35,539 bases of DNA, taken from Kiritimatiellia bacterium (lineage in GTDB: Bacteria > Verrucomicrobiota > Kiritimatiellia > CAIVKH01). This document shows positions 1 to 35,449 of this stretch, piece by piece. The DNA lies in NCBI GenBank assembly GCA_049451655.1, contig JBMTVS010000001.1, forward strand, positions 1 through 35,539, read 5' to 3'. The stretch's first letter is position 1. The number at the start of each line of letters is the position of its first letter. Position numbers and translations under genes: made by a program. Under the pieces are notes generated by a model. It was given only the letters and a program-made list of their open reading frames with translations, made no database searches and had not been told where the DNA came from.

Positions 1-1427
1 ATTATGCCGGGGGCGCGACCCTAATCGAGAGCTTGTACCAGTCCATCCGGTCGCCGCTGCAGATTTTGCTGGTCGGCGATGCGCTTTGCGCGCCATGGGC
101 GCGGCCGCCGGCGATTACGCTGGTGAGCATGGAGGATGATGACCGGTTAAGTGGCACGGCGGAATTTGTCACCTCGGCTTGGGGCAACCTCAATCTGCGC
201 TCCATGATGATCATGTATATACTAGACGGAAAACCTATTCTGCTCCCGGGACAGCGCGGCGGGGTATTGAAACTCGACACCAAACCCGTCACTGATGGTT
301 ACCATTCATTACGGGCCATCGCCTACGACGTCGGCAATCCGGTTCGTCATCAAGGCGTGAGCGATATTGATTTTATGCTCTGCAATCGCGATCGCTTCGT
401 GGCGTTGAACGGTCCCGAACAAAATAGCCGGGTCGATGCGAAACGCCCGTTCACCTTGACCATGACCGCCACCGGCACGCCCGAGCGCGCGGCGATTGTG
501 GTGCAGGAGCGGTTACTGATGACCGCTGCGTTTAGCAACGGCATGACCTTCGTCATCAACCCGCAAACCATCGGCCCCGGGCCGGTTGATGTGCAAGCTA
601 TCGCGGTTTATCCGGATCGCGAGGCGGTGCGCAGCAAGCCATTGCGCCTCAACCTCGGTGTCGTCAATGAGCCGCCGCGCATCATCGATATCAAGGCGCG
701 CGAGCCCGACGCCAACGGGATGATCCTGTTGCGGAGCTTGGTAGAAGATCCGGACGGTGATGAAGTCAGCCAGACCTGGCATTACGCGCCGGTCATTGAT
801 GAGGAAGTTGCGGTCGCCGGGTCGCCCGATAAGGCGAAGCAATTCGCGCCGGACGAGGACACGCTGCGCATGGCGGCGGCGGTGCAATCAGTCAGCGCGA
901 CCTTTGCGCTCGAACAGCCTAACCGGTTGCGCGCGATCGATGTGACCTGCCGCTGGGAGGAGAGCGGTCTGCCGTTTGACCGGCATCAGGGCGGCATCGT
1001 GTTCAACGCGATGGACGAGAACAACTATCTCTATTGGGGACTCGATGGCCGACTCAGCGCCTGGGCCTTGAAGCGGGTGGTGGATGGTCGCGAAGAAAAT
1101 GTGCTGACCCGCGGCGCCCCGGTGCGCATGGAGGAAACCTATCGTTTGCGCATCGCTTTTAAAGGCGGCAAGACCATGCAGTTTATCGTCAACGATCGCG
1201 TCGAGGCGGAGGCGGACATCGACTTCGGCCCCGGCCGCGTGGGCGTGCGCGCAGGCACGTCGCCGGTTAATTTCAGCGACCTGTACGTTTCGCCACCATC
1301 CGCTGCGAAATCCTTTTTTAACGAGGAAGGCGACGTTATCTTTTTTCCCGCCGCCGAGGAAAGTACCGCGAAAAAACTACACGTCATCGCAAGGGATTTG
1401 CATAGCAGCACATCAAAAGCCTACTGA
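1..1427 (+). CDS. 5'-truncated large exported protein with C-terminal concanavalin A-like (LamG/DUF1080-type) lectin-fold domain; function unknown
   Basis: Frame 3 is open from the window edge through the TTG at 33 (no stop in 3..32), so the CDS very likely begins upstream of the window. The last ~170 aa (GGIVFNAMDENNYLYWGLDG...YRLRIAFKGGKTMQFIVNDRVEAE...GRVGVRAGTSPVNFSDLYV) show the strand pattern of LamG-type jelly rolls. The preceding part looks like beta-sandwich repeats. Family not recognised. Confidence 0.55.
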   Translation, partial: YAGGATLIESLYQSIRSPLQILLVGDALCAPWARPPAITLVSMEDDDRLSGTAEFVTSAWGNLNLRSMMIMYILDGKPILLPGQRGGVLKLDTKPVTDGYHSLRAIAYDVGNPVRHQGVSDIDFMLCNRDRFVALNGPEQNSRVDAKRPFTLTMTATGTPERAAIVVQERLLMTAAFSNGMTFVINPQTIGPGPVDVQAIAVYPDREAVRSKPLRLNLGVVNEPPRIIDIKAREPDANGMILLRSLVEDPDGDEVSQTWHYAPVIDEEVAVAGSPDKAKQFAPDEDTLRMAAAVQSVSATFALEQPNRLRAIDVTCRWEESGLPFDRHQGGIVFNAMDENNYLYWGLDGRLSAWALKRVVDGREENVLTRGAPVRMEETYRLRIAFKGGKTMQFIVNDRVEAEADIDFGPGRVGVRAGTSPVNFSDLYVSPPSAAKSFFNEEGDVIFFPAAEESTAKKLHVIARDLHSSTSKAY

Positions 1428-1444: not shown

Positions 1445-2719
1445 TTAAGAGCGTGAACCCTGACGAGCGGCCGCCTCATACACAGCGCGCGGGTTAACGC
1501 CAGCTTTAGCGGCCAAGCGGCGACAGTCATCCATTTCCGGCGCGCGGGTAATGTCTTCACCTTGCCAGGAACCAATTTTTACGCGGACTTCACCAAAGGG
1601 CGTGGTCACAGTTTCAAAGCGCCGCTGTAATTTTGTTCGCCTGACTGGAGTCTCGCGTACCCCGAAGGTCGTGCTGCCGCGAAAGATAATATCCAGCATG
1701 CGTTCCCGGTCACCGGGATGGCACAGCACGGAAAACACCATGCCCGAGCGTTGCTTTTTCATGGTGACCGGCGCGCAGGTGACATCGAGGGCGCCCGCCG
1801 CCAACACATCATCCATGAGCGCGCCAACCAACTCCGGCGTGGTGTCATCCAGGTTGCAGGCCAGTAACAGGGCTGTATCGGATGTTTCGCCCGCATGGTC
1901 CTCAACGTCATAAAGCGATGCTCGCAGCAGGTTGGGCCGGTGGTGAAGTTTACGTTGGCCCATGCTGTAAGCGATTTTCTTAACGACCGAACCGGCAGGG
2001 GGAGCCTCTGCATTACGCCATGTTGCAATCAGCGCAGCGCCCGTGGGCGTGACCAGTTCGAAAGGTTCATCGGTTTGCGTTACGGGAAGTCCGGCGGTAA
2101 GGGCGAGGGTGGCAGGGGCAGGATTGGGATAAACACCATGGGCGCAACGAATGGTTCCTTGTCCTTGAGGAATGGGCGAAACGGAGATCGAATCAACACC
2201 CAGCGCATGAAGCGCCCAACAACTTCCGACAATGTCCAGAATCGAATCGTCTGCGCCCACCTCGTGAAAATGAATATCATCCACCGGCACGCCGTGAATC
2301 GACGCCTCGGCTTCACCCAGTCGCTGAAAAACCGCGAGGCTGGCGCTTTTGACCGGACCGGGCAAATCCGCACGCGCAATCAGTTCCTTGATGCTGGATA
2401 ATGACCTGTGATCATGGTGGTGATGATGGTCGTGATGTCCATCCTCTGCTGACTCATGATGATGGTGTGCGTGATCATGAGTATGATCATGTGGATGGGC
2501 AGGCTGGGCGGCTTGCTCCTGCCCTTCTATCTCAACCCGCATGCGAACGCCGGTAATCCCCATGCTTTCTGCATGTGTAAGCTCAAGCTTGAAGGGCGCG
2601 GTACCGAGTTTTTTGAGCGCGTTAGTCAACTCGTCAAGCGGTGCCCCCAACTCCACCAGCGCACCCAGCATCATGTCGCCGCTGGCTCCGCCCACGCATT
2701 CGATGCGCAGGTGTTTCAT
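1445..2719 (-). CDS. larC: Nickel-pincer cofactor biosynthesis protein LarC (DUF111/UPF0272 nickel insertion protein)
   Basis: N-terminus MKHLRIECVGGASGDMMLGALVELGAP is the LarC/DUF111 signature. An internal His-rich tract (HPHDHTHDHAHHHHESAEDGHHDHHHHHDH) fits nickel handling. Single uninterrupted 424-aa ORF. 4-nt start/stop overlap with larB (2716-2719). Confidence 0.85.
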   Translation of the reverse strand: MKHLRIECVGGASGDMMLGALVELGAPLDELTNALKKLGTAPFKLELTHAESMGITGVRMRVEIEGQEQAAQPAHPHDHTHDHAHHHHESAEDGHHDHHHHHDHRSLSSIKELIARADLPGPVKSASLAVFQRLGEAEASIHGVPVDDIHFHEVGADDSILDIVGSCWALHALGVDSISVSPIPQGQGTIRCAHGVYPNPAPATLALTAGLPVTQTDEPFELVTPTGAALIATWRNAEAPPAGSVVKKIAYSMGQRKLHHRPNLLRASLYDVEDHAGETSDTALLLACNLDDTTPELVGALMDDVLAAGALDVTCAPVTMKKQRSGMVFSVLCHPGDRERMLDIIFRGSTTFGVRETPVRRTKLQRRFETVTTPFGEVRVKIGSWQGEDITRAPEMDDCRRLAAKAGVNPRAVYEAAARQGSRS

Positions 2720-3474
2720 GTTCCTCGCACTTCCTCGGCGGCACGGTTGATAATCGCGGCGGCAATTCCAGCGCCAAAACCATTATCAATATTCACCACC
2801 GAAATGCCGGCGGCACAGGAATTGAGCATGGCCATCAGGGGGGCAATGCCGCCCAGGTTGATGCCGTAACCGACGCTGGTCGGCACCGCAATAAGGGGAC
2901 GATCAAGCATTCCGCCCAGCACCGAGGGCAGGGCTCCTTCCATCCCGGCCACACAAATGACCGCGCGGCAGGTTCGCAGCATCTCGATGTGGGGCATCAA
3001 CCGGTGCAGGCCGGCCACCCCGCAATCGCTCACCCGCGACACATGCGCACCCGCCCACTCGGCGGTAAGCGCGGCTTCATCCGCTACCGGAAGGTCTGCA
3101 GTTCCCGCGCTCACCACCGCGACATGACCGATGCGCTGGTCGGCTGGTTTCATGGCGGCCGTAATGCAACGGGCACGATGATGATACACCGCATCCGGAT
3201 GCGCGGCCTTGACCACCTCATACACATGCGGCTCGGCCCGCGTGGCCAACACCGGTTCACCGGTCTCTTTTAGCACGCCAAATATATGCGCGACCTGCTC
3301 CGGGGTTTTGCTTGGACAATAAATGACTTCCGGAAAAGCACGACGCCGCGATCGATCGGTATCAATGCGCGCGAAACCAAGATCGCGAAACGCATCTTTT
3401 TTCATGTGGGCGGCCGCATCAGCGGGCGTCAGTTCACCCTTAGCCACTTGTTCGAGTATTTCTTCCAGCTTCAT
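2716..3474 (-). CDS. larB: Pyridinium-3,5-biscarboxylic acid mononucleotide synthase LarB (PurE-like)
   Basis: Motifs RRAFPEVIYCPSKT, VVSAGTADLPVADEA, CGVAGLHRL, AGMEGALPSV, PTSVGYG and NSCAAGISVVNIDNGFGAG match the LarB/NCAIR-mutase-like family. Adjacent to and overlapping larC. Confidence 0.85.
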   Translation of the reverse strand: MKLEEILEQVAKGELTPADAAAHMKKDAFRDLGFARIDTDRSRRRAFPEVIYCPSKTPEQVAHIFGVLKETGEPVLATRAEPHVYEVVKAAHPDAVYHHRARCITAAMKPADQRIGHVAVVSAGTADLPVADEAALTAEWAGAHVSRVSDCGVAGLHRLMPHIEMLRTCRAVICVAGMEGALPSVLGGMLDRPLIAVPTSVGYGINLGGIAPLMAMLNSCAAGISVVNIDNGFGAGIAAAIINRAAEEVRGT

Positions 3475-8450: not shown

Positions 8451-8564
8451 TCCGGGATTCATAGCGCGGCACACCACGCTTCGCGGTGGCGGCGCTTTAT
8501 GGGCTTCTTGCCCGGGCTAGTCCTCCCGTGCTAGCTTGCCCGGCAAACACAAAGGATGTGACAT

Positions 8565-17184: not shown

Positions 17185-17847
17185 CTAGAAGTGGTAGTGT
17201 AAACCAAACGAGAAGACCGGGTACACGGTGAACAAATCGAGCACATCATTGATATCTGACTGGGTATCCGAGGGCGGGGCGGCGCTATAACCAACACTGT
17301 AATCTTGCAGCAACAGCCCCATATCAAAGGTGAACGTTAAGGCCGCGTCCGGTTGAACCGGATTGGCCCACCCGATACCGATGTAAGGCGCAATACTGTC
17401 GTAGTCGGCTTTACCTCGATATGATCCTCCGGAAATGCCCGCCGAGTGATCATTCAAGCCGGCACCGGCCGCAATGCGAAAACTGCGTTGCTGACCGGGG
17501 TAAAAATCGAGGGTAAGGATGATGCCCGTCCAATCCAAATCCAGCTTGTAGTCGACACCATCAAATGTGTCCTTGTAGGTCAGATCAAACAAATGGAATG
17601 AGCCGCGAACATTGACCCAATCGAACAAATAATAGGTCACTTCGCTACCGTAGCCCAAGGTGCCGATGGTCGCTCCGAGCGAAAGTCCGGTCCATTCAAA
17701 GGCATCAGGGTTTGGCCGTCCATAGGCATCGTAGGCCTGCGGAGCACCACCACTCACAGGTCCAAGCGGCTGTGCTACAACGGGAAAACTAAACATTGTT
17801 ACTACAATAAATGAGGCACAAACAAATAAAGCTGGGCGTGTTTTCAT
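17185..17847 (-). CDS. Outer-membrane beta-barrel protein (OmpA-beta-barrel/OmpW-like porin family)
   Basis: Signal peptide MKTRPALFVCASFIVVTMFSFPVVAQP. Alternating amphipathic strands rich in G/Y/D. Terminal aromatic residue (...GLHYHF) typical of BAM substrates. Confidence 0.7.
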   Translation of the reverse strand: MKTRPALFVCASFIVVTMFSFPVVAQPLGPVSGGAPQAYDAYGRPNPDAFEWTGLSLGATIGTLGYGSEVTYYLFDWVNVRGSFHLFDLTYKDTFDGVDYKLDLDWTGIILTLDFYPGQQRSFRIAAGAGLNDHSAGISGGSYRGKADYDSIAPYIGIGWANPVQPDAALTFTFDMGLLLQDYSVGYSAAPPSDTQSDINDVLDLFTVYPVFSFGLHYHF

Positions 17848-18078: not shown

Positions 18079-19491
18079 CTAGTAGGCGTTACTACGGGCA
18101 AAAAATGTCCGGGCTATGATTTTGAAGTCGAGGGAGAGCGACCAGTTCTCCAGGTAGTACAAATCATAGTTCACCCGGTCGCTGATACTGGTATTACCAC
18201 GGAGGCCGTTTACTTGCGCCCATCCCGTGACCCCGGGTCGCGAAAAATGCCGCCACATGTAGCGACTGATATCCTCCTTGAACTGCTCGACGAAATGCGG
18301 ACGCTCCGGTCGAGGCCCGACAAGGCTCATGTCACCTTTCAGCACGTTCCAAAATTGCGGCAACTCGTCGATATTGTGCGCGCGCAGGAACGCTCCGATC
18401 CGGGTGCGGCGCGGATCATTTTCAACGGCCCAAACCGGACCGGTTTTGTCCTCGGCATCGATACGCATGGTGCGCAGCTTGTAGATGTTGAAGCGGCGAC
18501 CCTTTTCACCGCAACGCTCCTGCTTAAAGAAAATTGGACCGGGAGATGTGATCTTGATCAGCAAGGCGGCTACCGCAATGACCGGTGCGGAGAATAAGAG
18601 TCCAGCAGCGCTGCCTACAATGTCCTCCATCCGCTTGGCCACGCGGTTCCAGAATAGATCCAGCGGCCACTTGGCGGTGCCAAGAATAGGGATGCCGTCG
18701 ACATTCTGCACTTCCATGTTAATCGTCAGCAGCCGGAAAAGATCGGGTACGAAATTGAACGCGATCATGGATCGCTCGCATTCCAGGATGATCTCCGCCA
18801 TGCGGTTGTGTGGTAAATTTCCGGGACTGGAAAGAATGACCTGATTGACTTGGCCGCCCTGAATCACACGATTCAAATCATACACCGAACCCTGGATAAG
18901 TTCGCCGGGGATTTCAGGGTCGCTCGTCCCATCACCCATGCTCAAAAAGGCGACTACCCGCGTGCGGAGTCGTGGTTCGTTTTCTAACGCATCACGTAGA
19001 CGTGCCGAGACTGTATCCGCACCAAGGATGACAACATGATTTGAGATGCGCTTACCTCGAGCGAGTAGAATTTCCACCCGGAACAAGATGGCCCGGACGA
19101 TCAACAAGAAAACCGAAATCGTTACAAAAGAAAGGGCGATGGTGGTACGTGACAGCGGGGGGGTTGTGCCAATCGCGAAGGCGAGGGCGGTGGCGAGAAG
19201 TATGCCGAGTCCGGTCGCTCTGATCAGTCGCGGAATGCGTTCGCTGAAGGTGCCGAGCTGAGGTCGTGTGTAAAGTCCCAGGGATTGAAAAATGAAGCAA
19301 AAAAGTAACGTCATCACGATGCCGGCATAAACGTAAAGATCGGCCGGGGGAAGCGTTTCGTCCTTGAGAGGAATCCACCCGCTGTGAAAGCGAATCCAGA
19401 CCGCCAGCTCAAAACCGGTGAAAACCGCGAGGGCATCGCCCGCGAGCCCCAGGAGCCCGCACATCACATCAAATGTGTCGCGTCTTTTCAT
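18079..19491 (-). CDS. Undecaprenyl-phosphate hexose-1-phosphate transferase (WbaP/EpsB-type exopolysaccharide priming glycosyltransferase)
   Basis: Four to five N-terminal TM helices and a central Rossmann-like segment ([13 protein letters not shown]). C-terminal bacterial sugar-transferase domain has motifs [57 protein letters not shown]. Confidence 0.85.
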
Positions 19492-19508
19492 CCAACCTTA
19501 ACAAGGCA

Positions 19509-20432
19509 TCAGCCTTGACTCGCCAGAAACCGCTCCGCTTCCAGCGCGGCCATACAACCGGTGCCGGCGGCGGTGATGGCTTGCCGGTAATGAGGGTCCT
19601 GTACGTCGCCCGCAGCATATACGCCCGGAATAGTGGTTTTGGTGTGATGGGTAACCAGGTAGCCGCTTTCGTTCATTTCGAGTTGGCCCTCGAAGGGCTT
19701 GGTGTTGGGCTGGTGACCAATGGCCACGAACAGCGCTTTGACGTCCAGATCGGAAAGCTCGCCGGTTTGCGTGTTCTTTAATCGCAACCCGGTGACTTCG
19801 TTTTGTTCAACGCCGAGCACCTCATCGACCGTGGTGTTCCAATGAATCTTTATTTTCGGATGATTCATAACGCGGTCAGCCATGATTTTAGAGGCGCGAA
19901 AGGCATCGCGACGGTGGAGAATATGCACGGTAGAGGCAAAGCGGGTGAGAAAGATCGACTCCTCCATGGCGGTGTCACCACCACCGACTACCGCGACGGG
20001 AACATTACGATAAAAAGCGCCGTCACAGGTAGCGCACGAGGTTACGCCACGCCCGATCAACTTTTGCTCCGAAGGGATACCAAGATACTTCGCGCTGGCT
20101 CCGGTGGCGATAATCAGGGTGCGGGTTTCCATGGTGTTACCGTCGTCGGTGGTAATCTTTATTGGATTTGAACTAAAATCGGCCTTTTCGACCATGGCAT
20201 AGGCGAAACGGGTACCAAAACGCTCGGCTTGCTTACGCATACGGTCCATCAGTTCCGTGCCGTCCACGCCTTCGGCAAAGCCCGGGAAGTTTTCCACTTC
20301 GGTGGTGGTGGTGAGTTGTCCGCCCGGCTGCAGGCCCTCCAGCACCAGCGGATTCAGGTTGGCGCGTGCGGTGTAAATGGCAGCGGTCAATCCCGCTGCT
20401 CCGGTACCAAGAATAATCACGTTTTCGGTCAT
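19509..20432 (-). CDS. trxB: Thioredoxin-disulfide reductase
   Basis: MTENVIILGTGAAGLTAAIY (FAD GxGxxG), redox-active CATCDG, NADPH site VVGGGDTAMEE. I use the ATG at 20432, which is preceded by GAGGAAAG. The 40-codon upstream extension in the ORF track (to 20552) has no homology logic. Confidence 0.9.
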   Translation of the reverse strand: MTENVIILGTGAAGLTAAIYTARANLNPLVLEGLQPGGQLTTTTEVENFPGFAEGVDGTELMDRMRKQAERFGTRFAYAMVEKADFSSNPIKITTDDGNTMETRTLIIATGASAKYLGIPSEQKLIGRGVTSCATCDGAFYRNVPVAVVGGGDTAMEESIFLTRFASTVHILHRRDAFRASKIMADRVMNHPKIKIHWNTTVDEVLGVEQNEVTGLRLKNTQTGELSDLDVKALFVAIGHQPNTKPFEGQLEMNESGYLVTHHTKTTIPGVYAAGDVQDPHYRQAITAAGTGCMAALEAERFLASQG

Positions 20433-20837: not shown

Positions 20838-21455
20838 ATGAAAAAGCAATTTCTAGCCGCCGCGCTTGCGGTCGGCGTCACCACCGGATCGCACCTCCAC
20901 GCCATGATTACCGATTGGGCCAATTTAGATGCCTCTTTCGGCACGGGAGCCAATCGGTCCGCGTTGATCATCGACTGGAATGATGGCAGCGCTCAAGACA
21001 CCTTGTATTGGGGGTTTTTCTGGGACACAGCCCCCGGGGGCGGCACCGTCGCGGATTTGATTACGGCGGTCTCCGCCGCGGATGGACGCCTTACCTTCAA
21101 CCTGACGGATTTCGGTAGCGGCTTGGGTTTGTTTGTGGACGGCATCGGATTTGATGCCGGGCAGAATTCTAGTTATGCAGATCCGGGAGATCACTACCAG
21201 GACCGCAACGGGGGCTGGACAGATACTTTTGTAAGTTGGGAGGGACACAGCACAAGCGGCACCTGGGCTACTTCAGCCAGCGGCATCTCCAGCACGGCAA
21301 TACAGCATGATTACGCCTACGGCTTCAGTTGGAACAACAGCGGAAGCTGGCCCGGTGATGCGCCAGGGGTTGTGCCCGAGCCGGCTTCCCTGGCCTTGAT
21401 GGGTCTTGGTTTGGGGTTGTTCTCGGCGCGACGTTTAATGCGGAAAACCGCTTAA
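20838..21455 (+). CDS. Secreted PEP-CTERM-anchored protein of unknown function, under cobalamin-riboswitch control
   Basis: Signal peptide MKKQFLAAALAVGVTTGSHLHA. C-terminal VPEPASLALMGLGLGLFSARRLMRK is a PEP motif plus TM helix plus basic tail (PEP-CTERM sorting signal). GAAGAAGG Shine-Dalgarno. The mature ~150-aa Gly/Trp/Ser-rich domain is not recognised with certainty. Confidence 0.8.
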   Translation: MKKQFLAAALAVGVTTGSHLHAMITDWANLDASFGTGANRSALIIDWNDGSAQDTLYWGFFWDTAPGGGTVADLITAVSAADGRLTFNLTDFGSGLGLFVDGIGFDAGQNSSYADPGDHYQDRNGGWTDTFVSWEGHSTSGTWATSASGISSTAIQHDYAYGFSWNNSGSWPGDAPGVVPEPASLALMGLGLGLFSARRLMRKTA

Positions 21456-29620: not shown

Positions 29621-30073
29621 ATGATGTTTTATAATCAAGACGACGAAGAAGAAGGCTACGGCGGCGACGAAATGTATCAAGAATGCGAGGTCTGTCACCA
29701 GGAGTACCGGGGATTCTGCCCGATAAACTCCGCGGACTGTCCTTATGATGAAGACGAGGACGACGACTTTGGTTTTGACGATGACGATGAGGAAATCGAG
29801 GGGTTGCTCGGCGACGACGAGGAAATCGAAAAGATCATCGACAGCGATGACGAGATCCCGGTTGAGGACTTGATGGATGGGGCGGAACCCTCCGGCGAAG
29901 AGGAAGAGGAAGAAGGGCCCAGCAAGACCATTGAGGAAATTGAAGCTGAGGAGGCGGAGGCCGCTGCGGCAGCCAGGAAGAAAAAAAAGTCCGCTGGAAA
30001 AAAGGACGACACATCCGGGAAAGCGTCAAAGCAACCCGCCAAGAGTAAGTCGACTGCAAAAACGAAGAAGTAG
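29621..30073 (+). CDS. Charge-segregated small protein: N-terminal Cys4 knuckle, poly-acidic core, Lys/Ala/Ser-rich histone-H1-like tail
   Basis: GGAGA Shine-Dalgarno 6 nt upstream. CEVCHQEYRGFCPINSADC gives C-x2-C-x8-C-x6-C. About 90 aa are dominated by D/E. The tail is ARKKKKSAGKKDDTSGKASKQPAKSKSTAKTKK. Confidence 0.6.
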   Translation: MMFYNQDDEEEGYGGDEMYQECEVCHQEYRGFCPINSADCPYDEDEDDDFGFDDDDEEIEGLLGDDEEIEKIIDSDDEIPVEDLMDGAEPSGEEEEEEGPSKTIEEIEAEEAEAAAAARKKKKSAGKKDDTSGKASKQPAKSKSTAKTKK

Positions 30074-30089: not shown

Positions 30090-30869
30090 TTAACCGACTA
30101 CCAACGGCAGCATGAACATAAATGCCGCACCCGGCCCGGTATCGGGCTGATAGAATATGCGACCGCCGAGATGGCGAATCGTTCTGTAGGTCTGGCTGAG
30201 ACCCAAGCCGCGCCCCTCGCCTCGCACCGTGGTGACAAAAGGCTCGAACAAGTTCTCGCGGACATGCTCATCCACCCCCGGCCCGGTATCACGGACCTCA
30301 AGACGAAGGTAGTCGCCGGGAATCAGGCCCATTCGGGCGAACGCATCGTCTTTGTCGACCTTACACGGTTCAACCAACGTAACCAGCGTACCGCCTGTCT
30401 GCTTCATGGCCTCGTAGGCGTTCACGCACAAATTTCGAATCGCGAAATACAAGGCATCCTCGGGACCTTCAATCACACATGGCGATGAGCTGGTTTTTAA
30501 GTCAACGGTGATGGGCTTTTCGGTCGGATACTGTTCGTATACCTCTGCCAGCACCAACTGGCTCAAGGCGACCAGATTGACCCGGGTCGGGGTTCCTTCG
30601 TTGCCATGGCAAAGTTGGATCAGGTTATTGTTCACTTCCACCAACCGGTCGGCGGCGATTTCCATATTCGAAAGTAATCCCACGGCCGAAGAATCCTCAG
30701 GTAATCGCCCCAAAATCAAACGGGGATACTCACGTAACGGCATCAGGATATTCGACATCGCGTGGGTCAGCCCCATGAGCACCTGATTAATCGCCGCAAA
30801 CGAGCTGTCTTCCAGCGAGGGACAATCCACAAGGCGATAGTTATCAGGAAGTATTTCTTGGTCTGACAT
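30090..30869 (-). CDS. Soluble histidine kinase (DHp + HATPase_c only, no sensor or TM domain)
   Basis: H-box-like LTHAMSNILMPL, N-box AIRNLCVNAYEAM, G1 RDTGPGV, F-box FEPFVTT, G2 GRGLGLS. Start taken at the ATG at 30869. The ORF track's TTG at 30905 is the alternative. Confidence 0.75.
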   Translation of the reverse strand: MSDQEILPDNYRLVDCPSLEDSSFAAINQVLMGLTHAMSNILMPLREYPRLILGRLPEDSSAVGLLSNMEIAADRLVEVNNNLIQLCHGNEGTPTRVNLVALSQLVLAEVYEQYPTEKPITVDLKTSSSPCVIEGPEDALYFAIRNLCVNAYEAMKQTGGTLVTLVEPCKVDKDDAFARMGLIPGDYLRLEVRDTGPGVDEHVRENLFEPFVTTVRGEGRGLGLSQTYRTIRHLGGRIFYQPDTGPGAAFMFMLPLVVG

Positions 30870-30921
30870 GTGCGCAACTATCCGCGCGCCAACCGTTACT
30901 GTCAAACCTCGAAGTGCTGAA

Positions 30922-31896
30922 TTATCCGCCGCCCAGCCACCAGCCGGTTACCTCGACCTGATTACTTACAGCGGAAGGCCCCACGATTTTCTCGTAGGCG
31001 TTGGTGCGGTAATCGAAGGTGCCGGAAGCACCATTCAAATCGATTTCGCCATCCGCCATCATGGTGCCCCAGATGTTAAAGGTGGAAGAGCCGTTAGCCC
31101 GGATGTCGCCGGTGACATAAAGAATGCCGTTGATGTTGCGGGTGCCGGAACCACGGAACTCTACATCACCGTGAACAATGGTAAAGGTATTGCTGTTGGG
31201 GGCTTCGTTTCGTTTGTAAACGATGTCGCCATAATGTTCGATTAAAAGGCCCTGATCCACGGCCGCATCCCGCAAGATCTGGAATTCGGGGCTGTCCAGG
31301 GTGGGGAAAGGCTTCAATTCCCAGGTGATGACCTGACCCGATGGTAGATTCTCCTCGATATCGGACTGATTTAAAGCGGAAATCGCCCCGTCGATACTTC
31401 CCCAACTTCCATTCACAACAAAATTGTTGTTGGCGTGAAGCGTTGCACTTTCGTTGATGGTCGGTGTGCCGGACAAGACGATTGTTCCGTCGGTGAACAT
31501 ACTGAACTCTGACCAATTCGGAAGGTTTGACCGAACAGCATCCCGCAACCCAACACCGATCGTAGCGCTGCTATCTTCGTAAACACCCACGACGGACAAG
31601 GTGCAGCGATTGCTATTATTATTCACGCTGATCGTATAAGTCCCGCCCCCGAAATTTGCTTCTTCACCGTCCATGGTCAGTCGCTCGTCGAAATCAGCGA
31701 TCAATCGCTGAATAGCCTGATTCGCACCCGCCTCGGCAATGGCCCGGGCGCGAATGGCATCGGTCATGGTTTCGGATTGCCGGAGCATGTTGGCCGAAAA
31801 GGCATAGAACCCCCCGGTGGTAAGCGAGACGATGAAGATGATGATCATCACGGTCACCAGGGCCGACCCGGATTGTTGGATGTTGGATGCTCTCAT
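30922..31896 (-). CDS. PilX/GspK-like minor pseudopilin (PilX_N-type N-terminus without Glu+5)
   Basis: QQSGSALVTVMIIIFIVSLTTGGFYAFSANMLRQSETMTDAIRARAIAEAGANQAIQRL matches the PilX N-terminal domain pattern. The C-terminal part is Gly/Asn/Thr-rich and beta-helix-like (GDVEFRGSGTRNINGILYVTGDIRANGSSTFNIWG). Confidence 0.6.
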   Translation of the reverse strand: MRASNIQQSGSALVTVMIIIFIVSLTTGGFYAFSANMLRQSETMTDAIRARAIAEAGANQAIQRLIADFDERLTMDGEEANFGGGTYTISVNNNSNRCTLSVVGVYEDSSATIGVGLRDAVRSNLPNWSEFSMFTDGTIVLSGTPTINESATLHANNNFVVNGSWGSIDGAISALNQSDIEENLPSGQVITWELKPFPTLDSPEFQILRDAAVDQGLLIEHYGDIVYKRNEAPNSNTFTIVHGDVEFRGSGTRNINGILYVTGDIRANGSSTFNIWGTMMADGEIDLNGASGTFDYRTNAYEKIVGPSAVSNQVEVTGWWLGGG

Positions 31897-31911
31897 GATG
31901 CTGCTCCTTAC

Positions 31912-34002
31912 TTAATTACGCGGAATAATTTCCGTAAACGCCGAAGCGGTGATGCGCTTGGGGCTGCCAATGCCCATCGCCACATCCTTGTAGACCGTCA
32001 AATCAATGGTGACGCCTTTCATGAGCGGAGCGTCATTAACCAGAACCTCGTAGACGCCCTGGGATGGTCCCGTCTGAAATTTTCCGGTTATCGGGGCAAA
32101 GCGCTCAGCGCCCTCCCACGCCATGATGATGTCGTGCAACTCGGGCGTTGCCGTCTCTTTATTACCTGCATTTACGCCCACACCCAAAGTTGCCTTGACC
32201 TGAAAATAGCGCCCGTCGATTAGTGGAGTGCTGTTATTCATCACATCCACCCAAACAATACCGTTCAGATTATTACTGGAGCCGGCCCTGGCCTGAACTT
32301 GCAAGGTTGGGCTGGGCGTAGTAAATCCTGTGGGTATCGTTCGCGTCCATTTGATCGACGAATAGTCCGGAGAAAGTCCCGTGTCGATAACCGGCGACAC
32401 ATAGACACCTTGCGGTGCATGGCCCGCGCGGACGTGCTTAAGCGCGTAAACCGCGTTTGTTCTCACCCAGCTACTTCCGTCGTAGACATACATATCCCGG
32501 GCGGATGTGATTTCATCATTGGTCCATGCACGGACAGACAGATTCGTCGTGTCTTCAATTTCAAATCCAATGATGTATGTATTGGTGCGCTCAATTAAAT
32601 AGCCCAGCGGCTCGCTGATCTTGGTGCCGGTAAACCAACCCGTGTCATCATCCCACCCGTCAAAACGAAAGTCGCGCTTGGTGCCGGAAATATATTCATA
32701 GGGATTGGCGCCTGGATCAGCAGAGAGTCTGCTCATGGCGATGTATGCATTTTTAATCTGGGCCTGTTTATTACTGGCAGCCTCAAATGTTGCCCAGACA
32801 TTCGTACCGGTAAACCTGATCCAGCCCCCGTCAAAATTATTGGTTAAATCGTCTCCCCGCAATATGACACGAACATCGGTCTCGGTGAGCATGCTGATAT
32901 AGGCGGGTGAATCAACATGGCGGGTTTGTTCTTCCGCCTGCCAGATGAGACCATTTCCCTCAAGTTCCAAACCGAAAGTGCTGGCGGTATAGTCGTCAAC
33001 GAGGATGCGCTCCAAGCGTTCAAGCGAGTCCGCGGTTCCGTTGAAATTTCTTTCCTCCCAGCTGTCATTCTGGAAATTCAGGGTAAACGTCTGCGCGGCG
33101 GCATTGGCTGGAAAATTCAGCCGCGAATTTCCACTCCAGGTTTCGTTACTTCCCATATTTTGAGCCGCCGGCGTGGCTCCGGAACTGGATTCAATCGCCA
33201 TCCACTCCGCTTCGAGACGGTTTCCAGACGGGGTCAAATTGAACCAGTCGGCCGCCAGTTGATAGCGCCCAATGTCGCCACCAGCGGAGGTGAATGTGAT
33301 GGTGTTGGTGCCGGTGAGTATGCGGGCGGAACCCAGATAGATTTCTTCGATGCTTTCCGATGCCGCGCCAAAGTCGACCGTGTTCGTGGTGATGTTAATT
33401 TGCCAGTCGACCAGGTTGGAGATGAGGGTGCGGGTGGCGCTGGTGTCGCCGTTGGACGCGGATGCCCCGTCGCCATCCTCGGAAACATCGGCGAGCTGCT
33501 GCTGGCGGGTGGTGTCGTTATCGACCCATGATGAGAATTCCGTGCGACGCACCTCGAACTGGTCGTTGGTCCAGAAGTGATAGACCACGGTGGTATCCCA
33601 CTCGATCTCGCCATCGGCATTGATGGCGTCTGCGCCACCTGAAATCACCGGAAAGCTGATTGCGGTATAGGGCGGGTTGTCGGGAGGGTGCAGTAGAATG
33701 CGTTCGCGCGAGGTTTGCCAGAGGTCGTGCCGCAAGCGGTCGAGCAGGATGCGGGCGTCCATATCCAGTTCATTCTGATTGGTGATCAGGCGGTCTGCGC
33801 GCAGCATGTAGGCGAATCCTGAAACCGCCGCGCTGGTTACAATGCCCAGCAGAGCGGTGGCGGCTAACATCTCGATCAGGCTAAATCCTCCAACCATCTT
33901 TTTCTTTGCATTTCGTGGCTCACCGAAATGCTTGCGGGAACGTAAATTTCCGTCGTGCCCTCGCGCAAATCGACCTCGCCCGCTGCTCAATAACCCGGTC
34001 AT
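31912..34002 (-). CDS. Giant (696-aa) prepilin-type protein, GspJ/PilW-like N-terminal module with large C-terminal extension
   Basis: Prepilin cleavage/methylation motif GGFSLIEMLAATALLGIVTSAAVSGFAY. A following segment (LDMDARILLDRLRHDLWQTS...TTVVYHFW...EVRR) resembles GspJ/PilW. A further ~500 aa of beta-rich sequence includes a CBM-like stretch (RLEAEWMAIESSSG...TFTLNFQNDSW). The ATG at 34002 overlaps the upstream gene's stop (ATGA). ATG at 33897 is an alternative that gives a very short leader. Confidence 0.65.
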   Translation of the reverse strand: MTGLLSSGRGRFARGHDGNLRSRKHFGEPRNAKKKMVGGFSLIEMLAATALLGIVTSAAVSGFAYMLRADRLITNQNELDMDARILLDRLRHDLWQTSRERILLHPPDNPPYTAISFPVISGGADAINADGEIEWDTTVVYHFWTNDQFEVRRTEFSSWVDNDTTRQQQLADVSEDGDGASASNGDTSATRTLISNLVDWQINITTNTVDFGAASESIEEIYLGSARILTGTNTITFTSAGGDIGRYQLAADWFNLTPSGNRLEAEWMAIESSSGATPAAQNMGSNETWSGNSRLNFPANAAAQTFTLNFQNDSWEERNFNGTADSLERLERILVDDYTASTFGLELEGNGLIWQAEEQTRHVDSPAYISMLTETDVRVILRGDDLTNNFDGGWIRFTGTNVWATFEAASNKQAQIKNAYIAMSRLSADPGANPYEYISGTKRDFRFDGWDDDTGWFTGTKISEPLGYLIERTNTYIIGFEIEDTTNLSVRAWTNDEITSARDMYVYDGSSWVRTNAVYALKHVRAGHAPQGVYVSPVIDTGLSPDYSSIKWTRTIPTGFTTPSPTLQVQARAGSSNNLNGIVWVDVMNNSTPLIDGRYFQVKATLGVGVNAGNKETATPELHDIIMAWEGAERFAPITGKFQTGPSQGVYEVLVNDAPLMKGVTIDLTVYKDVAMGIGSPKRITASAFTEIIPRN

Positions 34003-34421
34003 GGTTCGATCTCCCTTAACAGTGTCGAAACCGTGGTCGTCGAGAATCCGGCTTGCCGCGGCAAGGGCACACCTACCATCACGTCAATTTTGGCCACGCT
34101 CGCTATGCTGTTCCAATTCGTCTCCAGCACCGTGGTCCTGCGAAAACGCAACGTGCCAGCCCCCGTGCCCAATTCATCCACTTGCGTTTCGGATTCAACC
34201 AAGCTGCCAACCTGGGATAACGGGAGGTTTTTGGCTCGCTCGATTTGGTTATTCGCAATCAAGGTCCCCACGTAGTTGTCGTGAGCATACTTGCGCATCT
34301 GCATCGACATACTGATCGCTGAATATCCCCCGGCCAAACCGATGGCGAGTAACGTCATGGCAACCACGACTTCGACCAGCGTCATGCCAGAGCAGGCTGA
34401 ATTTGTGTTGAATCGCTTCAT
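33999..34421 (-). CDS. Small prepilin-type minor pseudopilin (GspI/PilV-like, 140 aa)
   Basis: MKRFNTNSACSGMTLVEVVVAMTLLAIGLAGG is a basic leader plus G|MTLVE methylation motif plus hydrophobic helix. I start it at the ATG at 34421. The upstream part of the 235-aa ORF (to 34706) has no coding logic and overlaps larE. Confidence 0.7.
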   Translation of the reverse strand: MKRFNTNSACSGMTLVEVVVAMTLLAIGLAGGYSAISMSMQMRKYAHDNYVGTLIANNQIERAKNLPLSQVGSLVESETQVDELGTGAGTLRFRRTTVLETNWNSIASVAKIDVMVGVPLPRQAGFSTTTVSTLLREIEP

Positions 34422-34512
34422 CTGTATGTTTGAGCAGCAGAAAGCATGCCTTGTCTTCAAAGTGCCGAAGTTCAACATAAATAAATACCAAAACAGCTCA
34501 ATTCCCGCAATC

Positions 34513-34591: not shown

Positions 34592-35449
34592 ATGGATAAA
34601 GACGTAGACAATGCGTTAACCGCCGTGGAATGGCCACCCGGCCCCGCCGAAAAAATGGCGGCACTGGAACAGCGTTTTGCCGGTATGGGCTCGGTGATTG
34701 TGGCATTCAGTGCCGGGGTGGACAGCACCTTTCTCGCCGCCATGGCGCACAAGGTGTTGGGCGACAAAGCGTTAATTGTTACCGCAACCTCGCCCTCCTT
34801 CCCTGCGCGCGAGCTCGAGGAAGCCGTCGAGCTGGCCCGCTCACTGGGCCTGAACCACCGCGTGATTCAATCCAACGAGTTGGCCAATCCCGACTACGCG
34901 AACAATCCCGACAGCCGCTGCTACCACTGCAAGACCGAGCTCTACGGCCTGCTGCGAGATATTGCCGACCGCGAGGAATATGCCCGCATCGTGGATGGCA
35001 CCAATGTCGATGATATGAACGATTATCGGCCCGGTGCCCTGGCCGCCCGCGAGAAACGGGTCGAGAGCCCGCTGCAGGAGCTCGGCTTCACCAAGGCCGA
35101 CATCCGCGAAGCCTCACGCCTGCTCGGACTCAAGACCCACGACAAACCTGCTTTCTCGTGCCTCGCCTCCCGCTTTCCCTACGGCATCGAAATCACCCGC
35201 GAGGCCCTCAGCCAGGTCGAGCGCGCCGAGGATGGCCTGCGCGAACTTGGGTTCAGCGAATTGCGCGTGCGGGCCCATCAAGACGTCGCCCGCATCGAAC
35301 TGCCCGCCGACCAGATTGCCCGCGCCGCCGCGCCTGAGATGCGCGATAAAATCTCCACCCTGCTCAAGGGCTGCGGCTTCCGCTACGTCTCGCTCGATCT
35401 GCAGGGTTACCGCCGCGGGAGTTTAAACGAAGTTTTTAAGCGGGTGTAA
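34592..35449 (+). CDS. larE: NPN-cofactor sulfur transferase LarE (PP-loop ATP pyrophosphatase family)
   Basis: PP-loop VAFSAGVDST, and conserved SRCYHCKTELY and AFSCLASRFPYG motifs typical of LarE. ~280 aa. ATG at 34655 (MAALEQRF...) is an alternative start. Confidence 0.8.
   Translation: MDKDVDNALTAVEWPPGPAEKMAALEQRFAGMGSVIVAFSAGVDSTFLAAMAHKVLGDKALIVTATSPSFPARELEEAVELARSLGLNHRVIQSNELANPDYANNPDSRCYHCKTELYGLLRDIADREEYARIVDGTNVDDMNDYRPGALAAREKRVESPLQELGFTKADIREASRLLGLKTHDKPAFSCLASRFPYGIEITREALSQVERAEDGLRELGFSELRVRAHQDVARIELPADQIARAAAPEMRDKISTLLKGCGFRYVSLDLQGYRRGSLNEVFKRV

Follow-up and report, generated by a model that had tools for sequence, protein, structure and literature searches.

Two sets of minor prepilins, GspI-GspJ-GspK of type II secretion systems and PilV-PilW-PilX of type IV pili, are encoded by three adjacent, co-oriented and translationally coupled genes in the order small, middle and a last member lacking the glutamate at position 5 of the mature protein (Glu5). 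In this study, a trio of genes with this arrangement, designated g1, g2 and g3, was analyzed in a 35,539-nt stretch of DNA from a Kiritimatiellia bacterium (assembly GCA_049451655.1, contig JBMTVS010000001.1, positions 1 to 35,539), hereafter called the window. In Kiritimatiellia and Lentisphaerae, the trio is likely to encode the minor pilins that prime a type IVa-like pilus and form its tip; in the lineage of the window, its operon has moved away from the genes for the assembly machinery. The likeness to the known sets includes the alignment of g1 with almost the whole GspI model and the linkage of the trio, in related genomes, to a PilB/PilC/PilMNOPQ machine. The differences are that all three proteins score under the family cut-offs, that g2 is 3–4 times larger than GspJ or PilW and has no detectable J or W core past the first helix (alpha1), that g3 carries a beta-solenoid instead of the alpha domain of GspK, and that neither a GspH/FimU nor a PilY1 partner accompanies the presumed trimer.

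Three further systems are close to parts of the trio. ComZ of Thermus thermophilus (PDB 6QVI, with PilA2) has a pilin domain closest to GspK and a solenoid closest to the ice-binding protein FfIBP, and it was reasoned that the pilus tip is the only place where such a subunit fits (PMC6561018). The predicted g3 protein likewise combines a GspK-type pilin scaffold with an ice-binding-protein-type beta-solenoid, but it has 324 aa compared with about 550 and 11–12% identity; moreover, ComZ is a DNA receptor, whereas g3 is partnered by g2 with its carbohydrate-binding module (CBM)-like parts, and nothing ties the locus to competence. The g2 protein is likened to modular type IV pilins such as Streptococcus sanguinis PilB (with a vWA module) and PilC (with a lectin module) and CofB of enterotoxigenic Escherichia coli. 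The display of adhesive or lectin modules at pilus tips by modular pilins is an established concept; these proteins are predicted to be tip-exposed, and carbohydrate-binding modules are among the known grafts (PMC8179133, PMC9934059). In contrast to them, g2 has an extension of about 500 residues predicted to form several beta-sandwich domains with no Pfam/InterPro-type signature, and it represents a family of the diderm Planctomycetes-Verrucomicrobia-Chlamydiae (PVC) clade that occupies the J/W position, with g3 as a second modular pilin beside it. Tapirins of Caldicellulosiruptor (6N2C/6N2B) resemble g3 in having a beta-helix and in being encoded beside type IV pilus genes in a polysaccharide degrader. 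Unlike g3, they are not pilins, and the structural match of g3 to tapirin was insignificant (Foldseek rank 34, probability 0.06).

Gene organization of the trio

The initial annotation, made from the sequence alone, described three co-oriented, tightly packed genes encoding 140, 696 and 324 aa, and our analysis confirmed them (Table 1). Also as annotated, the g2 ATG overlaps the g1 stop codon by 4 nt (ATGA); the same 4-nt overlap was found in the related loci L001, L003 and L005. g3 starts 15 nt past the g2 stop, and a fourth co-oriented gene, for a histidine kinase, follows 16 nt past g3 and belongs to the same unit. The unit is probably a sigma-54-dependent operon of four genes, g1-g2-g3-kinase, extending from window position 34450 to 30090 on the minus strand. 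The three genes are not chance open reading frames (ORFs): homologues with 28–97% identity cover 95% of the length of g2, and 69 loci contain the trio.

Class III (prepilin) signal sequences with Glu5 were present in g1 and g2, in agreement with the annotated motifs. The N-terminus of g1 reads MKRFNTNSACSG/MTLVEVVVAM, the cleavage motif being SG/MTLVEVVVAM with Glu at +5 (the slash marks the cleavage site), and Pfam N_methyl matched it with an E-value of 5.9e-8 (32.4 bits; gathering score, 21.2). In g2, the motif KKKMVGG/FSLIEMLAA spans residues 33–47, again with Glu at +5, and N_methyl matched residues 36–59 (E 8.4e-5; 22.4 bits against the same gathering score of 21.2).

The order of the pilin-like genes follows the I-J-K or V-W-X pattern, as had been proposed, and g1 matched GspI over nearly the whole model (TIGR01707, positions 1–91 of 101, E 7.7e-7), with a score of 29.5 bits, under the curated cut-off of 44.35. 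PilV (TIGR02523) gave an E-value of 2.8e-7 and 31.1 bits, under the cut-off of 52.2, and BLASTP against GspI of E. coli K-12 gave no match. By its position and size, g1 resembles an I/V subunit, but it is not filed as a member of the GspI or PilV family. Assignment of the trio as a whole to the I-J-K or V-W-X roles rests on position, motif and fold.

Table 1. Coordinates of the trio, the kinase gene and features within or next to them
Feature	Position in window	Strand	Description
Sigma-54-type -24/-12 element, GGCATGCTTTCTGCT	34436..34450	minus	14 nt upstream of the g1 ATG
g1	33999..34421	minus	140-aa minor pilin, GspI/PilV-like; leader MKRFNTNSACSG, then MTLVE
g2	31912..34002	minus	696-aa predicted modular minor pilin in the GspJ/PilW gene position
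g2 leader, residues 1–38	33889..34002	minus	Unusually long, not conserved; predicted local distance difference test (pLDDT) <50
g2 pilin module, about residues 39–200	33403..33888	minus	alpha1 helix 42–95, small sheet to about 160, helix 163–176 (DSSP on the model)
g2 extension, about residues 201–696	31915..33402	minus	Predicted all-beta, beta-sandwiches; Trp-rich, Cys-free; boundaries approximate
g2 residues 206–258	33229..33387	minus	Sequence-related to MiXBM (xanthan-binding module, PDB 7EHG), C-terminal half
g2 C-terminal motif E-x-x-P-R-N (EIIPRN), residues 691–696	31915..31932	minus	E691, P694, R695 and N696 invariant in 30 sequences
g3	30922..31896	minus	324-aa predicted ComZ-like tip pilin; GspK/PilX-type N-terminus without Glu5, small pilin sheet and beta-solenoid
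Kinase gene	30090..30905	minus	271-aa soluble histidine kinase (DHp + HATPase_c); last gene of the unit

Linkage to pilus machinery in related genomes

Related loci were scanned using one genome per species. All 69 loci with the trio belong to Kiritimatiellia, Kiritimatiellales, Pontiella or Lentisphaerae/Victivallales, including that of the cultured Pontiella sulfatireligans F21 (L037). By tblastn, the g1-g2 pair was found almost everywhere, with g1 directly upstream of g2 in most loci, and g3 was detected unless it was too diverged. Machinery genes were located within 10 kb of the trio in roughly half of the loci having flanks. In L001 (65% identity), the genes are PilB (MshEN + T2SSE), PilC (T2SSF), a sigma-54 response regulator, g1, g2, g3 and the kinase. 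L005 and L012 have the kinase, a small membrane protein, g1, g2 and g3, and then, convergently, PilQ-P-O-N-M, a PilA-like pilin and a sigma-54 regulator, which is followed in L012 by PilC and PilB. In L003 and many others, g1, g2 and g3 are followed by PilM, PilN and PilO. The components PilB, PilC, PilM-N-O-P-Q and PilA were observed beside an orthologous trio in L001, L003, L005, L012, L018, L022, L055, L060, L069 and others. Because the trio so often adjoins PilB, PilC, PilM-N-O-P-Q, a PilA-like pilin and a sigma-54 regulator, it is best regarded as a resident minor-pilin operon.

Two observations were made on L005 alone. The 185-aa gene preceding g1 in this locus was considered as a fourth pilin and was rejected, as it encodes a small multi-pass membrane protein. 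PilM and the PilA-like gene are separated by a gene for a Wzy_C (O-antigen-ligase-like) protein (18317–19699, minus strand), which was detected in L005 and not in L012; it recalls the TfpO/PilO pilin glycosyltransferases and suggests that the pilin of that lineage is glycosylated.

The identity of the linked machine was indicated by a PilB match (TIGR02538) of 634 bits, together with PilQ, PilM and PilA matches. This bears on the alternative of a GspI-J-K tip on a type II secretion pseudopilus, in which the trio would serve as a piston cap for export of the glycoside hydrolases and sulfatases of the clade. Such a role is unlikely, since the machinery genes beside the trio are of the PilM, PilN, PilO, PilP and PilQ type, not GspC, GspL, GspM or GspD, and are joined by a PilA-like pilin under a sigma-54 regulator. 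An array of beta-sandwiches of 500 residues and a beta-solenoid are also hard to square with a periplasmic piston, and the closest analogues of the two are surface-exposed tip pilins, namely modular pilins and ComZ (PMC6561018, PMC8179133). On the other hand, GspI is the fullest-length family match of g1 (91 of 101 positions), though the E-value for PilV is slightly better, and the N-terminus of GspK is the only family match of g3. The 97%-identical homologue of g2 was named 'PulJ/GspJ family protein [Kiritimatiellia bacterium]' by NCBI (two others being 'hypothetical protein'), and mature g2 is free of cysteine, as are pseudopilins. In addition, the linked ATPase scored 609 bits against GspE compared with 634 against PilB, the platform protein matched GspF best, and no PilT was seen.

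The pattern-based scan gave one trio copy per genome in all but one case. The exception is a metagenome-assembled genome carrying two paralogous g2 modules about 215 kb apart on a 2.16-Mb contig (L038 and L044, CAVUUJ010000002.1), each near PilB-like ATPase matches.

Predicted architecture of g3

The N-terminus of g3 reads QQSG followed by SALVTVMIIIFIV. Its cleavage motif, SG/SALVTVMIII, is hydrophobic and has Thr at +5 instead of Glu; G10, S11, L13 and M17 are invariant in 7 homologues. No Pfam match was obtained, and PilX_N was absent at E ≤ 0.1. The NCBIfam GspK model (NF037980) matched only over its first 65 positions (E 2e-4; 20.9 bits, with a cut-off of 130), and hhalign with E. coli GspK gave a probability of 0.6%.

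The AlphaFold2 (AF2) model of g3, built from a shallow alignment of 7 sequences, is of moderate confidence (pLDDT 74.9). It shows N-terminal helices, a sheet of four strands and, after it, a beta-solenoid flanked by a helix, with no GspK alpha domain. The top Foldseek match was ComZ (6qvi; E 2.6e-7, probability 1.0), followed by DUF3494 ice-binding beta-solenoids including FfIBP; weak profile matches to tapirin (E 0.014) and ComZ were also obtained. According to this model, g3 has the architecture of ComZ, i.e., a GspK-type pilin scaffold and an ice-binding-protein-type beta-solenoid. The GspK/PilX-like character assigned to g3 in the initial annotation is consistent with the absence of Glu5 and with the ComZ-like fold, but not at the level of the PilX_N and GspK family thresholds.

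As ComZ binds DNA at the pilus tip (PMC6561018), its rank as top structural match, with which the weak profile match agrees, would fit a trio acting as the DNA receptor of a competence pilus, with g3 in the role of ComZ and g1 and g2 as its partners. This appears quite improbable, since the likeness of g3 to ComZ is at the fold level and g3 is about 200 residues shorter, the extra modules of g2 are CBM-like and not DNA-binding, and ComEA, ComEC and DprA were not noted among the Pfam-annotated genes of the neighbourhoods inspected.

The g2 family and its extension

For g2, 35 word-indexed full-length homologues were found, and a search with the profile of the family alignment (A1) returned the same 35 proteins and none new. 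An exhaustive profile search extended the family to at least 320 clusters (50% identity) at E ≤ 1e-30 and to 795 at E ≤ 1e-10, most of them with about 690 aa and aligning end to end. In an alignment of 30 sequences, mean column identity was 45%, Glu5 was invariant, and many Trp, Gly and Pro residues were invariant as well. About half of the aligned members end exactly at the PRN of the C-terminal motif, while more distant ones go on with PRNTG(K/R); the motif may serve for docking, as a strand, or as a signal for processing or sorting. The leaders of the homologues have about 10–25 residues in A1, and the 38-residue leader of the window g2 is lineage-specific and atypically long. Its M1 is supported as the start by the ATGA overlap with the g1 stop, which is kept in relatives.

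When the 30 family members were searched against Pfam and NCBIfam at E ≤ 1, no consistent domain other than the N-terminal pilin motif was detected, and the NCBIfam matches of g2 itself were confined to that motif. The g2 family is therefore a large, previously unnamed family with no Pfam or NCBIfam signature past the prepilin motif. The initial annotation placed a GspJ/PilW-like segment in g2; past the N-terminal helix, such a segment could not be detected by Pfam, NCBIfam or hhalign. Neither Pfam nor NCBIfam gave a J or W match, two GspJ models matched the homologues weakly in 8 of 30 and 2 of 30 cases (best E 0.011 and 0.002, respectively), and hhalign with E. coli GspJ gave a probability of 74% over residues 35–108 only. 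The top 50 Foldseek matches contained no GspJ or PilW structure, the whole-chain query being dominated by the extension. The models of the Verru_Chthon cassette (TIGR02596–TIGR02600) did not match g1, g2 or g3 at E ≤ 0.1 and gave weak N-terminal matches in 2 of the 30 g2 homologues.

On the basis of its AF2 model (mean pLDDT 80.6), g2 is predicted to be a modular pilin in which the pilin module is fused to about 500 residues of beta-sandwich domains. Mature g2 has 0 cysteine and 2.9% Trp, and no internal repeats were found by hhalign between seven slices of the protein. Foldseek matched the CBM-like domain of acetylxylan esterases (AcXE; 7toh and 7toj, probability 1.0), a domain described in PMC9105624. 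In the model, one g2 domain superposes on it, the isolated domain (7tok) giving a target-normalised TM-score of 0.74; a polyvinyl-alcohol esterase found in the same search carries the same domain. Matches to viral structures were limited to generic multi-beta-sandwich tail and receptor-binding-like proteins.

At the sequence level, a PDB-chain profile search aligned g2 residues 206–258 (profile positions 180–236) with residues 80–134 of MiXBM (E 2.9e-7), the xanthan-binding module of a Microbacterium xanthan lyase (7EHG; PMC10881899). Only half of the MiXBM module aligns, and carbohydrate binding by g2 is putative; no Pfam CBM family matched g2. The MiXBM and AcXE matches support the large beta-rich extension with CBM-like parts proposed in the initial annotation. 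The stretch singled out there as CBM-like, residues 262–315, adjoins the segment with demonstrable CBM homology and does not lie on it.

Two relatives of about 980 aa (P0183 and P0186) have FG-GAP (integrin-like beta-propeller) repeats after the conserved first 400–460 profile positions. Sequence comparison thus indicates that distal modules of the family are exchangeable in the course of evolution. Separately, g2 was called at only 518–522 aa in L007 (8421–9989) and L008 (8433–9989), tblastn similarity beginning at 8514, and in these two loci the pilin part at the N-terminus may have been disrupted or have diverged strongly.

Sigma-54 element and kinase gene

The element GGCATGCTTTCTGCT upstream of g1 matches GGCAYG-N5-TGCW exactly, as no other site in the window does, and it is kept in L009, L007 and L001. 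In the fetched loci, this strict pattern occurred 60 times in 2.6 Mb of strand sequence. In 32 of 71 loci it stood directly before g1, 460–654 nt ahead of the g2 pilin motif, compared with about 0.015 expected per locus, and a prepilin ORF lay within 60 nt downstream in 32 instances, including PilA-like genes in L055 and L060. A looser pattern with two mismatches occurred at chance level; only the strict pattern combined with its positional conservation was informative. Scans for sigma-70 promoters and intrinsic terminators gave nothing above shuffled expectation. We infer a putative sigma-54 promoter upstream of g1. The g1 transcript implied would be nearly leaderless and have no Shine-Dalgarno sequence; the spacing of element and start in other loci is about 3 to 57 nt.

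The kinase has a HATPase_c domain (E 5.8e-17) and neither a transmembrane nor a sensor domain. Its TTG start is uncertain, an ATG being present at 30869. An equivalent kinase flanks the trio in L001, L005, L007, L009, L012 and L015, and in L001, L005 and L012 a sigma-54 response regulator lies adjacent. The kinase is probably the partner of a sigma-54 response regulator encoded elsewhere in the genome. The sigma-54 elements, the adjacent sigma-54 activator and the small kinase in relatives together suggest a PilS/PilR-like pair that regulates the trio jointly with the major pilin.

Window contents and detachment from the machinery

Apart from the unit, the window contains housekeeping genes, namely those for LarB, LarC, LarE, PurL, PurQ, RmlA, RmlC, HrpB, NAD kinase, Maf, thioredoxin reductase, Lon, Hsp20, FtsK, PgsA, a RodZ-like protein and a PEP-CTERM protein. 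Pfam and NCBIfam searches with every large ORF of the window detected no ATPase, platform protein, secretin, prepilin peptidase or major pilin, and references for PilB, PilC, PilM, PilN, PilO, PilP, PilQ, PilA and RR54 gave no tblastn match there. These scans agree with the annotated lack of assembly machinery in the 35 kb, and the machinery must be encoded elsewhere, as had been concluded. The window reaches only about 1.1 kb past g1, and on that side the statement that no machinery is nearby was judged from the syntenic relatives L007 and L009. L009 (75% identity by g3) keeps the order of the window, namely LarE, the module, kinase, PgsA, FtsK and Lon; L007 (81% identity by g3) has the LarE-side flank, the module with the kinase, and Lon/FtsK in common with the window. 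Both have a TRAP transporter beyond LarE. Detachment from the machinery was found only in the lineage of the window and in some Pontiella loci. Because the closest relatives share the arrangement of the window, detachment is a stable lineage trait and not an assembly artefact.

The initial annotation viewed the trio as a stand-alone, exchangeable tip cassette serviced by machinery encoded elsewhere. This view, with a mobile or exchangeable cassette as one of several that a distant machine can load, did not hold up and is very unlikely to be correct. No mobility genes or repeats flank the trio in the window, and its GC content of 0.54, compared with 0.54–0.60, is no compositional anomaly that would hint at horizontal transfer. 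Its housekeeping neighbours remain syntenic in relatives with as little as 75% protein identity. Furthermore, relatives have a single copy in all but one case, the trio is inside or beside a pilus gene cluster in about half of the loci with flanks, and the sigma-54 pattern precedes g1 in 32 of 71 loci. What a cassette would explain is the detachment seen here and in several Pontiella loci, the two paralogous modules on one 2.16-Mb contig (L038, L044), and the variation of distal modules among members of the g2 family. That the trio is a decaying remnant, its function lost after separation from the pilus genes, is hardly credible, for although the trio is detached and the g2 call is shortened in L007 and L008, the ORFs in the window are all intact, g2 still has its C-terminal motif and the residues that are invariant in the family, relatives have preserved both the ATGA coupling and the sigma-54 element, and L009 has a full 696-aa g2.

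Several other genes of the window were noted. Nickel-pincer cofactor genes are split, with LarC (Ni_insertion) and a LarB-like AIR carboxylase at 1445–3474 (minus strand) and LarE (TIGR00268, E 8e-100) at the opposite end of the window (34592–35449, plus strand), divergent from g1. Convergent with the kinase gene is a gene for an extremely acidic 150-aa protein (29621–30073, plus strand) with Asp/Glu runs, an N-terminal CxxC...C and a Lys-rich tail; counterparts of 150 aa in L009 and L010 and of 149 aa in L007 occupy the equivalent position, and its sole match was a spurious low-complexity Pfam hit. ORFs at 33–1427 (plus strand, 464 aa) and 17185–17847 (minus strand, 220 aa, with a signal-peptide-like N-terminus) had no Pfam match. 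The unannotated window ORFs of 464, 220, 169 and 150 aa were unlike the accessory proteins of the pilus loci in L001 or L003. The 205-aa PEP-CTERM protein (20838–21455, plus strand), whose gene adjoins a LolA-like gene, fits a PVC/Verrucomicrobiota origin and implies an exosortase system elsewhere in the genome.

Proposed mode of action

As the minor-pilin complex of a type IVa-like pilus, the trio would act as follows. A prepilin peptidase encoded elsewhere would cleave g1, g2 and g3, which would then form a GspI-J-K-like heterotrimer in the inner membrane. This heterotrimer would prime filament assembly by the distant PilB/PilC/PilMNOPQ machine and afterwards cap the pilus. The beta-sandwich array of g2 and the beta-solenoid of g3 would make up a ligand-binding head at the tip, with a polysaccharide, or a particle coated with one, as the most likely ligand. 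The operon and the major pilin gene would be regulated jointly by the small kinase and a PilR-like sigma-54 activator. In the lineage of the window, a rearrangement would have moved the operon from the machinery genes without inactivating it.

A number of points weigh against this proposal. The assembly machinery, the prepilin peptidase and the sigma-54 regulator of this genome are not within the window, and the trimer and its location at the tip we infer. Only three minor pilins are present, with no equivalent of GspH/FimU; g1 and g3 are under the curated cut-offs of GspI, PilV and GspK, and g2 shows no detectable similarity to GspJ or PilW past alpha1. A PilT-type retraction ATPase was not identified in any of the related loci examined (in L038 and L044, high GC and spurious ORFs prevented a full reading). 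The sigma-54 element implies a 5' untranslated region of only about 4 nt before the g1 ATG, which is unusual. The CBM evidence is at the level of the fold, with sequence homology over half a domain to one module, and a classical binding pocket is lacking even in the CBM-like domain of AcXE (PMC9105624).

Significance

Kiritimatiellia, Pontiella and Lentisphaerae are anaerobes with a major part in the breakdown of sulfated and algal polysaccharides (PMC7356697, PMC10880615). No description of pili of these three groups was found in literature searches. A polysaccharide is the most economical guess for the ligand because g2 has CBM-like parts, aromatic residues are conserved and the clade lives by degrading polysaccharides. 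More tentatively, and on balance doubtfully, the clade-wide trio may be an unrecognised glycan-capturing tip, with a CBM-like array, swappable distal modules and a ComZ-like solenoid, that tethers or reels in sulfated or algal polysaccharides or particles.

What is new is a family of modular pilins of about 700 aa, with at least 320 clusters, tied to a type IVa-like pilus under putative sigma-54 control. With no annotated extra domain, the family escaped domain-based survey, and published surveys of modular pilins, which rely on annotated domains, miss whole families. Pontiella sulfatireligans F21 is a cultured organism in which a role as tip adhesin or in glycan capture can be tested. If glycan capture were true, type IV pili would be part of the polysaccharide-foraging apparatus of PVC bacteria, analogous in function to SusD/CBM-based capture in Bacteroidota.

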